Source: a virus | Taxonomy: Duplodnaviria; Heunggongvirae; Uroviricota; Caudoviricetes | DNA length: 23,900 nucleotides | IMG/VR virus record: IMGVR_UViG_2778261223_000025 | Coordinates: 1 to 23,900 of that record | Strand: one strand, 5' to 3' | Shown: positions 785 to 9,407 of the stretch, piece by piece | Numbering within the stretch: the first letter of the stretch is position 1 | How the letters are laid out: each line of letters starts with the position of its first letter | Notes under the pieces: generated by a model | Seen by the model: the letters and a program-made list of their open reading frames with translations, nothing else | What the model was told of the DNA's origin: nothing | Databases searched by the model: none | Translations under genes and position numbers: made by a program

Positions 785-1248
785 GCAGAGTAACCGCGAT
801 TATCTCCGCTCTGGTTATTTGCATCATCGTCTGCCTGTCATGGGCTGTTAATCATTACCGTGATAACGCCATCGCCTACAAAGAACAGCGAGATAAAAAA
901 GTCAGTGAGCTGAAGCAGGCGACCGCCACCATTACTGACATGCAGCAGCGCCAGCGTTCTGCTGATGCGCTCGATGCTAAATACACGAAGGAGTTAGCTG
1001 ATGCGAAAGCTGAAAATGATGCTCTTCGGCGCAAGCTTGATAATGGTGGTCGGGTGTTCGTCAAAGGAAAATGCCCTGTGCCATCCTCAGCCGAAACCTC
1101 CGGCGCCTCCGGCATGGGCAATGATGCCACCGTCGAACTCTCTCCAGTTGCTGGACGAAACGTTCTCGGTGTCCGGGACGGAATTATCCGCGACCAAACA
1201 GCACTGAGAACGCTTCAGGAATACATCAGGACGCAATGCCTTCGATGA
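781..1248 (+). CDS. Rz: Rz i-spanin (inner-membrane spanin subunit)
   Basis: 155 aa with N-terminal transmembrane segment ([18 protein letters not shown]) and coiled-coil body; N-terminal half resembles lambda Rz, C-terminal part differs. Confidence 0.88.
1001..1207 (+). CDS. Rz1: Rz1 o-spanin lipoprotein, embedded in the +1 frame of Rz
   Basis: 68-aa ORF wholly inside Rz in another frame; lipobox (MVVG-C) then a proline-rich stretch ([11 protein letters not shown]), as in lambda Rz1. Confidence 0.8.
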
Positions 1249-1422
1249 TAGCGATAATTTTACTCATCATCCTTCACATCTGGCTCTGTAGACAGGGTGG
1301 TGATCACTTCTGGAGTGAATCCAGATTAAACATCTCATTGCTGATGCTTGAAGTTGAGCATCTGGCGCGCGGTAAGGGGCTGCGTTGAGATAAGAGCCAG
1401 TCATTACAAATACCAGGATTTA

Positions 1423-1446
1423 GCCTCGCATTCGCGGGGCTTTTTT
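1423..1446 (+). terminator. Candidate rho-independent terminator downstream of Rz
   Basis: 7-bp stem gcctcgc/gcggggc (one G-U pair) with a 4-nt loop, followed by TTTTTT. Confidence 0.4.
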
Positions 1447-1593
1447 ATATCTGCAACAAACGCGCTTCACACGCGCGACTTATGAACACAGAACCTTTCA
1501 GGATGACCCTTGAGGATGCCGGTTTGGTGATCGGTGCCTTTCTGTGGGCCGGAATCCTGTGTGACAAGGTTCATCACTAAAAGGTGAGCACTG

Positions 1594-2136
1594 ATGAATT
1601 ATCCAACTATCGTTAACGGCATCGATTTCCGAGAACTGATTTTTGTGGCAAACAACGATCCGGTTACAGATTCTTTTATGGTGGCAAAAGCATTTGGAAA
1701 GCTGCCGAAGAACGTGGTTCGTGACATTGAGCGAACCATAGAAGCTTGCCCTCCTGAGTTTGATACAAAGCTCAACTTTGAGCTTTGCTATAAAAACAAT
1801 GAGTTACAGAATGGTAAGCCGCAAAAATTCTACCGTCTACGCAAGGATGGGTTGATGCTTTTGGTTATGTCCTACACCAAAAAAGAAGCAATGCGTATCA
1901 AAATTGCTTACATCAACGCATTTAACTGGATGTACGCCATGCTTCAGGTTGGTCATCGTCAATTTGAAGAAGAGAGAAATGCCGTAATGCTGGAGTACAT
2001 GAAAGAGAAGGATGTTGCCAGCATGTCAGGTCGCCTGCTAAATCGCTGGGGCAAAATTAAGAAGCCACAGTTGCTGGCTAGAATTGAACGCCTTGAACAG
2101 CACGGGCAAACCGTAATCCCCGGACTCATCAATTAA
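1594..2136 (+). CDS. rha: Rha-family phage regulatory protein
   Basis: 180-aa ORF with a Shine-Dalgarno-like aaaggtgag upstream; N-terminal region resembles the phage Rha domain and sits where P22-like phages carry rha (between lysis genes and terminase). Confidence 0.75.
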   Translation: MNYPTIVNGIDFRELIFVANNDPVTDSFMVAKAFGKLPKNVVRDIERTIEACPPEFDTKLNFELCYKNNELQNGKPQKFYRLRKDGLMLLVMSYTKKEAMRIKIAYINAFNWMYAMLQVGHRQFEEERNAVMLEYMKEKDVASMSGRLLNRWGKIKKPQLLARIERLEQHGQTVIPGLIN

Positions 2137-2343
2137 CGGCAGTACCGCGAAACAACCCAAGCCAGTAAGTGGGGAAATAACTGAAAGATGAACCTCCAGC
2201 CTTATGGCAAAAAAGATTCTTTGTGGTGGCGGACTGATGGAAAGACATCGGATAGAATAAAACAGTGGCTAGGGTAGCTCCCGAAAAGCGGAATCGTCAC
2301 CGCCAGCCACTGAATCTATGACGAACAACTAGACGAGGTTGAT

Positions 2344-2586
2344 ATGAGTGAAATTGATAAAATAATAAATGGTACATGTAACTTTCAATCAATGCCGCCA
2401 GGTAGTTATGTAAAACAATGTAGTGAAATAGTTAATGGTCAGCTTGTAATGTCAAATGCAGGACGTGGAGTTTCTACGGATGAAAAAAAATCAATAAATG
2501 AAGCCCTATTAAGCATCAATGTTTTTGACTTGTTTCGCCCATCTTGGGTTATTTTGCAAAATAGTAGTCAATTCCCACATTATTGA
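2344..2586 (+). CDS. Hypothetical 80-aa protein, AT-rich moron
   Basis: ORF with a gaggt Shine-Dalgarno-like motif 5 nt upstream of the ATG; visibly AT-rich relative to neighbours; followed by its own terminator; no signal peptide; no family recognised. Confidence 0.5.
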   Translation: MSEIDKIINGTCNFQSMPPGSYVKQCSEIVNGQLVMSNAGRGVSTDEKKSINEALLSINVFDLFRPSWVILQNSSQFPHY

Positions 2587-2604
2587 TAAATTAATTAATA
2601 AATT

Positions 2605-2626
2605 GGTCGCTCAGGCGGCCTTTTTT
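2605..2626 (+). terminator. Rho-independent terminator after the moron ORF
   Basis: Stem ggtcgc/gcggcc (one G-U pair), loop tcag, then TTTTTT. Confidence 0.6.
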
Positions 2627-2733
2627 ATTGCCATCACAAAAGCCATTCCCTACAGAGTGGCTTTGATAATGGCTTATACCCTACACGGGATAACTTAACT
2701 GATATCCCTTTTAACGGATAAACGGAGCCAACA

Positions 2734-2976
2734 ATGGCAGAGATTATTCCCATGACTGAAGAACAGAAATTCCAGTTAGAGATTTACAAGCTGGTCATGA
2801 ACCAGAACGCAGCCGCAGAAGAAGCATTTCAATTCATTGGCACTGACGAACTGAAGCTTGAGCTATTCAAAATTCACTTCCAGTCAGGTGGCGCTAATTC
2901 AGATATCACGACCCGAACTATCGAAGCGGTGCGTAAATCGAAGGAAGCGTTAGACCTGTTCACTACCGGAGCATAA
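2734..2976 (+). CDS. Hypothetical 80-aa protein immediately upstream of the terminase genes
   Basis: ORF with a ggag Shine-Dalgarno-like motif upstream; acidic, helical-looking sequence; P22 has a small ORF of similar size in this position (from memory). Confidence 0.6.
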   Translation: MAEIIPMTEEQKFQLEIYKLVMNQNAAAEEAFQFIGTDELKLELFKIHFQSGGANSDITTRTIEAVRKSKEALDLFTTGA

Positions 2977-3055
2977 ACATGGCAACTCAAGGTTTCGACA
3001 ACCCATCCAAATTCCGCGATGAATGGGATAAGCAAGCAGAAGGGAAATAATCAAT

Positions 3056-3544
3056 ATGGCAGCACCAAAGGGCAACCGATTTTGGGAGGCCCGCAGTAGT
3101 CATGGGCGAAATCCTAAATTCGAATCGCCTGAGGCGCTGTGGGCTGCTTGTTGTGAATACTTCGAGTGGGTAGAAGCTAACCCGCTATGGGAGATGAAGG
3201 CGTTCTCGTATCAGGGTGAAGTGATACAAGAGCCTATCGCCAAGATGCGAGCGATGACCATTACCGGACTCACTCTGTTCATTGATGTGACGCTTGAAAC
3301 ATGGCGCACATATCGCCTGCGAGAAGATTTATCTGAAGTCGTTACGCGAGCAGAGCAGGTCATCTACGACCAGAAATTCTCTGGCGCAGCCGCTGACCTT
3401 CTCAACGCTAACATCATCGCCCGTGATTTGGGCCTCAAAGAGCAGTCGCAAGTTGAAGACGTGACACCTGATAAGGGAGATCGCGATAAGCGACGCTCTC
3501 GTATCAAGGAGCTATTCAACCGTGGAACTGGACGCGATTCTTGA
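3056..3544 (+). CDS. 3: Terminase small subunit, P22 gp3-type
   Basis: 162 aa, the size of P22 gp3, and matches my recollection of it closely; contains the pac-like sequence; 3' end overlaps the large terminase start. Confidence 0.93.
3323..3344 (+). other. pac: P22-type pac site (headful packaging initiation) inside gene 3
   Basis: Sequence GAAGATTTATCTGAAGTCGTTA inside the small terminase gene matches the P22 pac site as I remember it. Confidence 0.55.
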
Positions 3545-5021
3545 TAACCTGAGCGACGAAGAGCAAATCGAGTTGCTCGAGCTACTCGAAGAAGAAGAGA
3601 ACTACCGGAACACACACCTGCTATATGAATTTACGCCATACAGCAAACAGCGTGAGTTCATCGACGCCGGGCATGACTATCCAGAGCGCTGTTTTATGGC
3701 TGGTAACCAGCTTGGTAAGTCATTTACTGGTGCTGCTGAAGTCGCGTTTCACCTTACCGGGCGTTATCCGGGCACAAAAGGCTATCCGGCTGATGGTAAA
3801 TATGGTGGGGAGTGGAAAGGTAAGCGTTTCTATGAGCCTGTTGTCTTCTGGATTGGCGGCGAGACAAACGAGACTGTAACCAAAACGACTCAACGCATCC
3901 TGTGCGGTCGTATCGAAGAGAATGATGAGCCTGGCTACGGCTCCATACCGAAAGAGGACATCATTAGCTGGAAGAAGTCTCCTTTCTTTCCGAACCTTGT
4001 TGATCACCTTCTGGTTAAGCATCACACGGCTGATGGCGTTGAAGATGGCATTTCAATCTGCTACTTCAAGCCATACTCGCAAGGTCGTGCTCGCTGGCAG
4101 GGTGACACAATCCACGGAGTGTGGTTTGACGAAGAACCACCATACAGCATTTATGGCGAAGGGCTTACCCGTACCAACAAATACGGGCAATTCTCAATCC
4201 TGACGTTTACCCCGCTGATGGGGATGTCTGACGTTGTTACCAAGTTCCTGAAGAATCCCAGCAAGTCGCAGAAAGTGGTCAACATGACCATCTATGACGC
4301 TGAGCACTATACCGACGAGCAGAAAGAGCAAATCATCGCATCCTATCCAGAGCATGAGAGAGAGGCTCGAGCTCGCGGTATTCCTACGATGGGTAGTGGT
4401 CGAATCTTCCAGATACCGGAAGAGACGATTAAGTGTCAGCCGTTCGAGTGTCCTGATCACTTCTACGTAATTGGCGGGATGGATTTCGGATGGGATCACC
4501 CTCAGGCGCAGGTTCAGCTTTGGTGGGATAAGGACGCAGACACAATCTACGTTTCGCGCGTGTGGAAGGCGAAAGAAAAGACAGCTGTTCAGGCGTGGGG
4601 AGCCGTTAAACCATGGGCGCATAAAGTGCCAACCGCATGGCCCCATGACGGAAACCAGCACGAGAAGGGCGGCGGTGAGCAGCTTAAAGGGCAGTACGCG
4701 GACGCTGGTTTTATGATGTTGCAGGAGCATGCGACATGGCCTGATGGCGGTAACGCTGTGGAGCCTGGAATCACTGAATTGCGCGACATGATGCTTGATG
4801 GTCGCTTCAAAGTATTCAACACCTGTGAGCCATTCTTTGAGGAGTTCCGCCTCTATCACCGTGATGAAAACGGGAAGATCGTCAAGCTTAACGACGACGT
4901 GCTATCCGCCGTTCGCTATGCATACATGATGCGCCGCTTCGCAAAAATGATGCGCGACATCAAAAAACCAAAAGAGAAAAAGATACCAGCCCCAATCAGG
5001 CCCATCGCACGGAGAACTTAA
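3522..5021 (+). CDS. 2: Terminase large subunit, P22 gp2-type
   Basis: 499 aa, the size of P22 gp2; sequence recognised as P22-type large terminase. Confidence 0.95.
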
Positions 5022-8112: not shown

Positions 8113-9407
8113 TGGCATTAAATGAAGGTCAACTGGTCACGTATGCTCTGGATGAAATCATCGAAACCGTCCAGAACCTGACGCCAATGGCGTCCAAAGT
8201 GACAAAATACACCCCTCCGGCAGAATCCATGCAGCGTTCAAGCAACACCGTGTGGATGCCTGTTGAGCAGGAAGCGCCAACCCAGACTGGCTGGGATTTA
8301 ACTGGCAACGCAACCGGGATTCTGGAACTCTCCGTGAAATGCAACATGGGCGATCCGGATAACGATTTCTTCGAGCTTCGTGCAGATGACCTGCGTGATG
8401 AGCGTTCTTACCGTCGCCGCATCCAGGCATCCGCCAAAAAACTGGCGAATAACATTGAGTCAGCGATTGCCAAACAGGCAACTGAAATGGGCTCGCTTGT
8501 TGTTCACGATACCCGCGCAATTGGTCCATCTACTGGCCTTTCTGGCTGGGATTTTGTGTCTGATGCAGAGCGCCTGATGTTCTCCCGTGAGCTAAACCGC
8601 GATATGGGCATCAGTTACTTCCTGAACCCTGACGATTACCGCAAAGCAGGCCGCAACCTGGTAGATGGTGACATCTTCGGGCGCGTTACTGAAGACGCGT
8701 ATCACAACGGTACTATTCAGCGTCAGATTGCTGGCTTTGATGAAATTCTTCGCTCACCGAAACTTCCCGCAGTTACCAAGTCAACCGCTACTGGTGTAAC
8801 TGTTTCTGGTGCGCAGAAGTTTAAGCCGCAGGCATACACCCTTGATACCGATGGTAACAAAGAGAACGTCGATAACCGTGTTGCAACGGTGACCGTATCC
8901 TCCACCACCGGATTTAAGCGCGGCGACAAAATCAGCTTCACTGGTGTGAAATTCCTGTCTCAGATGGCGAAGAACGTGCTGACTGATGATGCGACTTTCT
9001 CAATCACCCGTGTGATCGATGGTACTCACATCGAAATCACGCCGAAGCCGATTGCGCTGGATGACGCGTCACTGACAAAAGAAGAGAAGGCTTACGCTAA
9101 CGTAAACACCTCTCTTGCTGATACCACTCCGGTAAACGTTCTGAACGTGGCAACAACCACCGCTAACGTGTTCTGGGCTGATGACTCAATCCGTCTGCTG
9201 TCTCAGCCGATCCCGGTAACCCATGAACTGTTTGCTGGCATGAAAACGTCTTCCTTCAGCATTCCTGGTATTGGTGTTAACGGCATCTTCGCAACGCAGG
9301 GGGATATCAACACTCTGTCTGGCAAGTGCCGTATTGCTGTGTGGTATTCAGCATGTGCTGTACGACCAGAGGCAATTGGTGTTGGTCTGCCTAACCAGAC
9401 CGCGTGA
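8112..9407 (+). CDS. 5: Major capsid (coat) protein, P22 gp5-type
   Basis: 431 aa versus 430 for P22 coat; clear similarity along the whole length to my recollection of P22 gp5. Confidence 0.93.

Follow-up and report, generated by a model that had tools for sequence, protein, structure and literature searches.

A candidate portable moron cassette with an int-alpA RNA leader in a hypervariable late-region slot of a P22-like Escherichia coli prophage

What is a small AT-rich gene doing on its own between rha and the terminase genes of a P22-like prophage, by what means might it be expressed, and how much of the DNA around it belongs to it? We address these questions for ORF80, an 80-amino-acid (aa) open reading frame (ORF) in a sequence of 23,900 nucleotides (nt), positions 1 to 23,900 of IMG/VR virus record IMGVR_UViG_2778261223_000025, which we refer to as the window. 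The moron concept arose from the comparison of phages HK97 and HK022, and the lambda genes bor and lom are examples. A first-pass annotation of the window had proposed that ORF80 is such an acquired gene. The reading that we favour, at a probability of roughly 0.6, is that positions 2250-2630 form a portable moron cassette in a hypervariable slot, with RNA-controlled expression and a gene product that is probably conflict-related. The ORF80 moron itself is of a familiar kind and of less interest than the leader and the cassette system.

ORF80 has a GC content of 0.329 compared with approximately 0.49-0.50 in its surroundings, some 17 GC points lower, and in windows of 200 nt GC falls to 0.315-0.355 over 2301-2600 from 0.42-0.53 on either side, which bears out the earlier statement that it is much more AT-rich than its neighbours. 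A total of 199 phage records match the flanks, at approximately 92% identity, but none of them extends over the middle, and phage CUS-3 has 271 bp in place of the 641 bp of the window. The content of the slot was recovered with a left anchor starting at 2189 and a right anchor ending at 2733, using 69 loci that were fetched through the DUF2560 gene or through other matches. The slot is empty in CUS-3 and in 38 of the 69 loci, with 163 bp between the anchors as against 545 bp in the window, and at least ten alternative contents were found among the 69 loci. ORF80 itself is present in 15 of 5,426 complete E. coli genomes, STEC306-308 among them, and no relative was found by tblastn in 50,697 phage records. 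The presence/absence comparison among related prophages that had been suggested for this gene therefore finds the slot empty or otherwise filled in relatives, and the ORF is not fixed at similar GC in all P22-like phages. The slot alleles included the following:

Empty (38 loci)
62-aa ORF and terminator
Leader, DUF551 gene and terminator
Leader, ORF80 and terminator (the window)
Sf6-gp66-like gene, without terminator
Leader, 89-aa ORF, DUF551 gene and terminator
Two-gene combinations

The sequence common to all alleles ends with ...GGAAAGACATC at 2249. The alleles diverge from 2250 and those that bear a terminator rejoin at the terminator, and we therefore place the cassette at approximately 2250-2630; since the conserved flank 2137-2249 lies outside it, only about 94 of the 207 bases upstream of ORF80 belong to the unit. 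Comparison of the window with phage BIS08P22 puts the points of exchange precisely on the start codon and the terminator. Neither target duplication nor terminal inverted repeats were found at 2250 or 2630, and a transposon-like insertion was rejected on these grounds.

The same unit was also found elsewhere. A 79-aa homologue of ORF80 occupies the same slot in contig L005, which lacks rha, and another 79-aa homologue lies between the late antiterminator gene (Q) and the holin gene in contigs L006-L010. When the window, L005 and L007 are aligned, homology starts at the leader and stops a few bases past the terminator, and the sequence outside these limits is unrelated. We conclude that the leader-ORF-terminator unit occurs in two different slots, that is, it moves as a block. 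The elements of the cassette, together with the flank on its left, are listed here (all on the + strand).

2137-2249, +: conserved left flank of the cargo slot, near-invariant among relatives (context, outside the cassette)
2253-2258, +: putative sigma-70 -10 box TAGAAT, at the modal position among related leaders
2263-2312, +: leader core, int-alpA RNA (Rfam and minimum-energy fold)
2263-2269 with 2306-2312, +: stem P1 (minimum-energy fold)
2270-2271, +: UA junction
2272-2274 with 2280-2282, +: stem P2 (minimum-energy fold)
2283-2287, +: GAAAA
2288-2291 with 2300-2303, +: stem P3 (minimum-energy fold)
2292-2299, +: P3 loop AAUCGUCA
2319-2324, +: site 1, UGACGA, candidate pseudoknot partner of the P3 loop (6-bp complementarity)
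2326-2341, +: P4 hairpin, CAACU 2326-2330 with GGUUG 2337-2341, loop AGACGA 2331-2336 (minimum-energy fold)
2332-2336, +: site 2, GACGA in the P4 loop (5 bp with the P3 loop)
2335-2338, +: Shine-Dalgarno GAGG, overlapping site 2 and the 3' arm of P4
2344-2586, +: ORF80, ATG start, 80 aa
2605-2626, +: predicted intrinsic terminator GGUCGC-UCAG-GCGGCC then U6 (scan and fold; stem 2605-2620)

It had been noted that ORF80 is preceded by about 200 bp of non-coding DNA. The gap (2137-2343) is indeed 207 bp long and no + strand ORF in it reaches 30 aa, but it is not featureless, as it holds the conserved flank, a -10 box and an RNA leader. Positions 2262-2324 match the Rfam int-alpA RNA model (RF02996) with 42.0 bits against a gathering score of 35.8 (E = 5e-8); the match spans the full model (1-71), the 3' end of which falls on site 1. 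The minimum-energy fold, computed on 2263-2352, reproduces the three core stems P1, P2 and P3. Covariation was tested on 22 diverse leaders in a MAFFT alignment that was not fitted to the structure. In the stems 90.2% of the cells form standard pairs, compared with 36-49% when the partners are slid; 14 of the 18 pairs change on both sides, and the observed values were reached by none of 500 shuffles. The segments CUAG and CGAAAAG are invariant or nearly so, and G-U pairs are tolerated on the sense strand only, which favours an RNA over a double-strand DNA signal. We conclude that the upstream leader is a structured 5' RNA belonging to the Rfam int-alpA family. A riboswitch was considered for the highly conserved junction bases and judged unlikely, because the downstream genes are unrelated ORFans and not of one metabolic theme; no tRNA or tmRNA was found in the region.

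The int-alpA family stems from the motif survey of Weinberg et al. (2017; PMC5737381). In the literature searched no function is given for it: the one paper that names it has it as a table entry only, and the main text of the survey does not discuss it. The copy in the window has rha on one side and DUF2560 on the other, within the late operon, and does not stand in an integrase-alpA interval, and the RNA also precedes a DUF551 gene in L007 and a different ORF in phage BIS08P22. The integrase-alpA context is thus a habit of the RNA family and not part of the model. In Aeromonas sobria (L220, 2990-5584) a tyrosine integrase gene is followed by an int-alpA leader (4264-4305), a 271-aa ORFan and AlpA, an order that explains the name.

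The loop of P3 offers a candidate route from the leader to translation. Its segment UCGUCA (2294-2299) is perfectly complementary over 6 bp to site 1 and over 5 bp to site 2. When distant leaders were collected by pattern from viral and genome collections, loop and sites were seen to covary across subfamilies, as follows:

P3 loop UCGUCA: site UGACGA
P3 loop CCUUCA: UGAAGG, twice
P3 loop CCUGUU: AACAGGA, twice
P3 loop CCUUGA: UCAAGG and CAAGG
P3 loop CCCUG: CAGGG and AGGG
P3 loop CCGUG: CACGG and ACGG
P3 loop CAGCCU: AGGCUG and GCUG

At least one perfect loop-complementary site of 5 nt or more is present in 112 of 129 unique leaders, and two are present in 83 of the 129. The mean lengths of the longest and second longest loop-site matches exceed those obtained when loops are permuted among instances or their letters are shuffled:

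Observed (129 leaders): longest 5.18, second longest 4.09
Loops permuted among instances, mean of 200: longest 4.06, second longest 2.52
Loops permuted among instances, maximum of 200: longest 4.47, second longest 2.99
Loop letters shuffled: longest 2.98, second longest 1.40

The placement of site 2 was assessed on another set, of 120 leaders filtered separately, 81 of which have two sites. It can be seen that site 2 lies inside a hairpin loop in 74 of the 81, as against 26 of 81 shuffled segments, and the two sites are spaced by 7-8 nt in 61 of them. In leaders of the enterobacterial type site 1 is no longer Shine-Dalgarno-like and the loop match is retained, while site 2 extends 5' of GAGG, again keeping the match. 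From these sequence comparisons we infer, with moderate confidence, that the P3 loop would have two alternative partners, a decoy site and the ribosome-binding region, and that the choice between them would set translation.

Signals at the two ends of the unit were then considered. A -10 hexamer was scored if it had at least five of six matches to TATAAT, including A2 and T6, and ended 9-12 nt before the C of CUAG. Such a hexamer was present in 52 of 75 unique enterobacterial leaders, whereas a control window gave 1 of 75. Among its forms are TATAAT, TAGAAT, TAAAAT, GATAAT and CATAAT, of which TAGAAT, the form in the window, is one of the two commonest (14 of 52); a TGn extension accompanies 16 of the 52 boxes, and -35 elements are poor. 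The box in the window sits inside the cassette boundary and not in the shared flank, and the transcription start predicted from it, at about 2264-2265, coincides with the first bases of P1. The cassette therefore has a probable weak promoter of its own, as judged from the position and form of this box. The promoter TTGATA-16-AATAAT at 2339-2366, given by a generic scan, overlaps the start codon and was for this reason rejected as the promoter of ORF80. We also noted a leader sub-type (L006, L110, L129 and similar, with P2 of GAUAGGCCAAUC or GACCGGCCAGUC) that lacks the -10 box and comes immediately after a terminator plus TTTTTAGTT(A/G)G, which suggests that its 5' end is made differently, by processing or by another type of promoter.

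At the other end, the terminator that had been assigned to ORF80 is predicted at 2605-2626 (local fold z = -2.9), but it is not private to this gene. It also stands after unrelated cargo of the slot, namely the 62-aa ORF, DUF551, and the 89-aa ORF with DUF551, as a frame common to them, and it accompanies the ORF80 homologue into the Q-holin slot. The layout of a moron is in this way borne out by absence from relatives with closely similar flanks, by the number of alternative slot contents, and by low GC, predicted terminator, putative -10 box and recurrence in the Q-holin slot.

Next comes the gene itself. ORF80 has a good Shine-Dalgarno sequence at the right spacing (GAGG 2335-2338, AUG 2344). 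A word-indexed search of 5.8 billion clustered proteins returned six matching clusters, of which one is 95% identical, two are 79-aa forms with 73-75% identity and three are truncated or frameshifted. Against the 79-aa forms of L005 and L007 the ratio of non-synonymous to synonymous substitution rates (dN/dS) is 0.17-0.22 at dS 0.64-0.88, with 19-23 synonymous and 25-26 non-synonymous differences and about four times as many non-synonymous sites. The frame is preserved across a one-codon indel in homologues from two different slots, and 53 of 80 alignment columns are invariant. These comparisons indicate that ORF80 is a real gene under purifying selection. A run of eight A residues at 2483-2490, inside ORF80, is a frameshift hot spot, and variants with nine A residues yield 52-aa truncated products; such forms make up at least two protein clusters (P0005 and P0006, 17 member sequences) and also occur in L137. 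The A9 variants could be pseudogenes, the result of slippage-prone switching, or homopolymer sequencing errors.

The first-pass annotation had described a protein with two cysteines, without a signal peptide and without a recognised family, and on all three counts we agree. The cysteines, C12 and C26, are invariant in all homologues, and no hydrophobic N-terminus is present. Searches of Pfam, PHROG and PADLOC with ORF80 gave no match, and when 1.84 billion representatives were searched exhaustively with a HMMER profile, the only matches were its own cluster and six large repeat proteins. The latter were rejected as artefacts, as their significance comes from summing many matches of less than 16 bits, 30 in the best-scoring protein; up to 30 copies of a segment resembling SYLRSCSEI, at less than 7 bits apiece, were counted, and hhalign gave a probability of 3.6%. 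AlphaFold2, run on four sequences, gave three helices (3-11, 22-37 and 45-72) with a mean predicted local distance difference test score (pLDDT) of 65, and a Foldseek search of the PDB with this model returned only helical noise of the myoglobin type (best E = 1.5). ORF80 is thus an orphan, with no credible family or fold match in the libraries searched.

The leader precedes many other genes. Its exact 23-nt core, CGAAAAGCGGNATCGTCACCGCC, is present in 104 IMG/VR contigs, and at least 30 unrelated small ORFs begin approximately 20 nt past it (L091-L194; for example L115, L095, L130, L091 and L096). They are typically located immediately behind Rz, in the rha/Rz-DUF2560 slot or in the Q-holin slot, and every instance is co-oriented with the late genes. 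Cargo ORFs have a median length of 79 aa (range 28-165) and a mean GC of 0.42 compared with 0.51 in their flanks, 54 of 71 being lower by more than 5 points; a terminator-like site follows 53 of 73, and the GGTCGC...GCGGCC hairpin follows 37 of the 73. Of ten cargo proteins scanned, two match PHROGs of unknown function, one matches an RNA polymerase alpha C-terminal domain and the rest match nothing; the cargo tested gave no significant match to known defence families in PADLOC. Among the cargo we noted a 58-aa family beginning MDSQKQRDLIASLYEEL... (PHROG 12238), an 89-aa family beginning MKISLVGGPYD... (PHROG 17136), orphans of 83, 74, 67 and 136 aa, and DUF551. The cargo protein of L119, which has 165 aa and starts about 45 nt past the leader core at 8125-8147, ends in PF03118, the RNA polymerase alpha C-terminal domain (E = 3.8e-7), and may be a phage-borne mimic of that domain. 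Near-identical leaders occur in 47 of the 5,426 complete E. coli genomes, in one or two copies each (median 1) and never annotated, and in 21 of the 50,697 phage records. The wider leader family is spread over Beta-, Gamma- and Alphaproteobacteria, and among ten bacterial cargo proteins (188-396 aa) there was no significant family match and one sub-threshold match, to DUF7310.

We propose the following working of the cassette. A weak sigma-70 promoter, with the -10 box TAGAAT at 2253-2258, would start transcription at the foot of P1, so that ORF80 could be expressed while the prophage is repressed or as soon as the phage enters a cell; in lytic growth it would additionally be read through from the late promoter, which the co-orientation with the late genes leads us to expect in any case. 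The leader would then control translation, pairing of the P3 loop with site 1 (2319-2324) leaving the ribosome-binding site usable and pairing with site 2 in the P4 loop (2332-2336) occluding the Shine-Dalgarno sequence. The product is most likely, although we say this with low confidence and by analogy, a small cytoplasmic helical protein that binds a host protein or a protein of a competing element in a conflict such as exclusion, defence or counter-defence. This role is suggested because ORF80 sits among fast-swapping, AT-rich and family-less genes of mobile elements, because self-contained expression signals would permit synthesis from the prophage or on entry, and because the frameshifted copies show it to be dispensable.

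A number of observations weigh against this proposal. The -35 element of the window, CGGACT, matches the consensus at only three of six positions, no TGn extension is present, and a generic promoter scan found nothing upstream of ORF80, TAGAAT having been missed because the scan needed 9 of 12 matches. About a quarter of the leaders lack the -10 box and several of these directly follow a terminator, including the Q-holin copy of the ORF80 homologue, so that the promoter is not obligatory for the leader. The fold of the window leader beats shuffles only modestly (z = -1.75). The loop and its two sites are almost constant within the enterobacterial subfamily, and pairing there rests on comparison with distant subfamilies; moreover, the sites are Shine-Dalgarno-like anyway in most subfamilies, which could account for part of the complementarity. 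Lastly, the role of ORF80 is argued through guilt by association, given the null PADLOC result and a structure model of low confidence, and a gene with frameshifted copies is dispensable.

The doubts about the promoter are the starting point of one alternative, which is that ORF80 is a passenger of the late operon with no working promoter of its own, made only lytically by antiterminated late read-through, its leader folding within the late transcript as, for example, a processing or stabilising element. The weak -35 and the blank generic scan fit this, as do the co-orientation of the unit with the late operon in every instance, the Q-holin-slot leaders that directly follow a terminator without a -10 box, and the finding that in the related P22-like prophage Gally the moron is not expressed in lysogeny broth, although the allele of Gally differs. 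However, this explanation leaves unaccounted for the way in which boxes with A2 and T6 peak sharply at a position immediately before P1 (52 of 75 leaders; control, 1 of 75) and the fact that the box belongs to the cassette and not to the shared flank, and a terminator of its own makes little sense for a gene expressed purely by read-through. We regard it as rather unlikely. We would be just as hesitant to see the leader mainly as a trans-acting small RNA of the C4/CI kind, excised as a stable species of about 50-60 nt, that represses its own downstream gene as well as matching genes on incoming elements, with the loop-site types as specificity classes. Rfam does type the int-alpA family as a small RNA, the loop-site pairs do fall into discrete classes, and the architecture, a closing stem and two hairpins with one loop to which two sites of the transcript are complementary, including one at the ribosome-binding site, parallels that of the phage P1/P7 C4 and satellite P4 CI RNAs. 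Yet the Rfam C4 model has no match even at E up to 10, a genome usually has one copy of the leader (median 1, maximum 2), and the enterobacterial leader and ORF are not separated by a terminator or a known processing signal; action in trans would in any case be compatible with action in cis and no replacement for it.

The remaining explanations dispense with the RNA or with the gene. Leader and terminator might be recombination sites at the DNA level, integron- or attC-like, or homology patches for cassette swapping, with no regulatory role as RNA. Unrelated ORFs do stand between near-identical ends, the breakpoints between BIS08P22 and the window fall exactly at start codon and terminator, and structured single-stranded DNA sites can resemble RNA motifs (Weinberg et al., PMC5737381). 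Against this, the orientation relative to the downstream gene is strictly fixed, G-U pairs are confined to the sense strand, and the loop covaries with sites in the ribosome-binding region, which a DNA site would not need. There is no integron integrase near the slot, neither direct nor terminal inverted repeats mark the ends of the cassette and the 3' element is a plain GC hairpin with a T run, for which reasons an integron gene cassette was rejected; homologous recombination at the ends surely occurs, yet it leaves the structure unexplained. We consider a pure DNA role improbable. Less credible still is that ORF80 is a non-functional chance or decaying frame in AT-rich filler DNA. It is an orphan without relatives beyond about 73% identity, its structure model is of low confidence, and versions frameshifted from A8 to A9, of 52 aa, occur in several genomes, but the dN/dS of 0.17-0.22, the frame kept with a one-codon indel in homologues from two slots, and the well-spaced Shine-Dalgarno sequence speak for a gene. 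The reading of 2250-2630 as an RNA-controlled, portable moron cassette is accordingly the one that we retain.

It is instructive to set this cassette beside known systems. Like lambdoid morons, it is a single gene of deviant composition inserted between genes that are adjacent in relatives, in the late region, with a predicted terminator and probably a promoter of its own; unlike them, its -10 box, structured leader and terminator form a frame common to dozens of unrelated ORFs, and this frame moves between slots. The leader has the three-stem core of int-alpA RNA and its junction bases CUAG, CGAAAAG and CC[U/A], but differs from the typical member in lying in a P22-like late operon and in having the P3 loop UCGUCA rather than one of the CCUU type. 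Two RNAs encoded in leaders, the antisense RNA C4 of phages P1 and P7 and CI of satellite P4, have loops that pair with sites on their own transcript, among them the ribosome-binding site of the next gene; loops and targets covary as specificity types. The window leader resembles these RNAs in the complementarity of its loop to sites on its own transcript, including the ribosome-binding site, and plausibly works like them, if the analogy holds. It is nevertheless without detectable homology to them in sequence or structure: the Rfam C4 model found no match at E up to 10 over 2235-2360 or at E up to 1 over 1200-3200, and the leader is therefore not a member of the C4 family. It also has one antisense loop where C4 and CI have two, with both sites downstream and 7-8 nt apart, and the genes after int-alpA leaders are variable cargo and not an antirepressor or replication operon. 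Citron and Schuster (1990) is cited as the primary reference for C4-type RNA in PMC8201110. As at anti-CRISPR loci linked to aca and at the defence hot spots of P2, P4 and phage-inducible chromosomal islands, a conserved regulatory element marks a site of small, fast-changing, family-less genes; here, however, the marker is an RNA leader and not a helix-turn-helix gene or flanking core genes, and none of the cargo tested significantly matches a known defence family. We did not find in the literature lambdoid late-region morons with promoter box, RNA leader and terminator as a shared frame, nor a moron leader of this kind that is the int-alpA motif with its loop matched to two sites at the ribosome-binding region, and a literature search on DUF2560 and P22-like morons returned nothing on this slot.

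From its surroundings the cassette belongs to the late region of an E. coli prophage that is P22-like (Lederbergvirus-type). The chromosome of E. coli ETEC1738 carries 2137-2740 with 100% identity, and the element there begins with the integration region, continues with lambda-like early genes and reaches head genes of the P22 type. The genes around the slot in the window are as follows:

1-324: holin
308-784: endolysin
781-1248: Rz
1594-2136: rha (Phage_pRha and ORF11CD3)
2734-2976: DUF2560 gene, 80 aa (hkbM in HK620 and CUS-3)
3056-3544: small terminase
3522-5021: large terminase
from 5022: portal

The gene order reported earlier, with ORF80 between rha and the terminase genes, thus stands, but the direct downstream neighbour is the DUF2560 gene and the small terminase gene begins only at 3056. 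With 2137-2740 as query, which includes the right flank and the start of DUF2560, some part was matched in 2,565 of the 5,426 E. coli genomes. The left flank, 2137-2249, is near-invariant in the window, CUS-3, BIS08P22 and Huey, whatever adjoins it on either side, and is conserved in all P22-like relatives, those with an empty slot included. It remains constant although the gene upstream varies (rha, KilA-N or none), and it carries the starts of short overlapping ORFs, MNLQPYGKKDSLWWRTDGKTS... from the ATG at 2189 and MAKKILCGGGLMERH... from 2204, the C-termini of which differ from allele to allele. The annotation of the epsilon34 record likens it to the N-terminus of ST64T orf118, and it could be either what is left of an old gene start or an element with a function.

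Further features of the neighbourhood were noted in passing. The interval between Rz and rha has a strong terminator-like hairpin at 1422-1441 (eight pairs followed by T5). The rha gene (1594-2136) is variable among relatives, being replaced by a KilA-N gene in BIS08P22 and missing from L005, so that it too behaves as a swappable unit. Just upstream of DUF2560 the right flank has an imperfect inverted repeat at 2630-2673 with 19-nt arms that are 79% complementary and the core AAAGCCA...TGGCTTT, and the empty allele has a different hairpin (GAGACCA...TGGTCTC) in its place. A 23-codon ORF at 2979-3050, between the DUF2560 and small terminase genes, may encode a conserved micro-protein; its paralogue MSAEGFNNPSKFRDEWDSSVKSK is the sole content of a 269-bp slot allele (L078 and L087). 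The L005 prophage, which carries a 79-aa homologue of ORF80, also has, immediately downstream of its Q antiterminator gene, an RNA of the Hfq-binding isrJ type at 2807-2885 (44.2 bits against a gathering score of 37).

A broader idea, which we offer tentatively and to which we give clearly less than even odds, is that the int-alpA leader and the shared terminator constitute a portable expression socket in temperate phages and integrative islands across Proteobacteria. Its promoter-proximal, self-limiting loop would, in the manner of C4 and CI, switch from a decoy site to the ribosome-binding site and back and might have a type-specific action in trans as well, and the ORFans that it drives would be a large pool of conflict effectors for counter-defence, exclusion or host takeover.

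The analysis proposes a testable role for an Rfam motif previously without one, namely that of a 5' leader that would pair with the ribosome-binding region of variable cargo. The cassette is compact, with approximately 130 nt of control sequence, and its logic is open to dissection by a few compensatory mutants. The short RNA signature could harvest hundreds of unannotated accessory genes from prophages and islands, as aca did for anti-CRISPRs. If the cargo genes are conflict effectors, the leader would be a discovery handle for them, and if it acts in trans, it would add an RNA-based layer of specificity to the competition between prophages.

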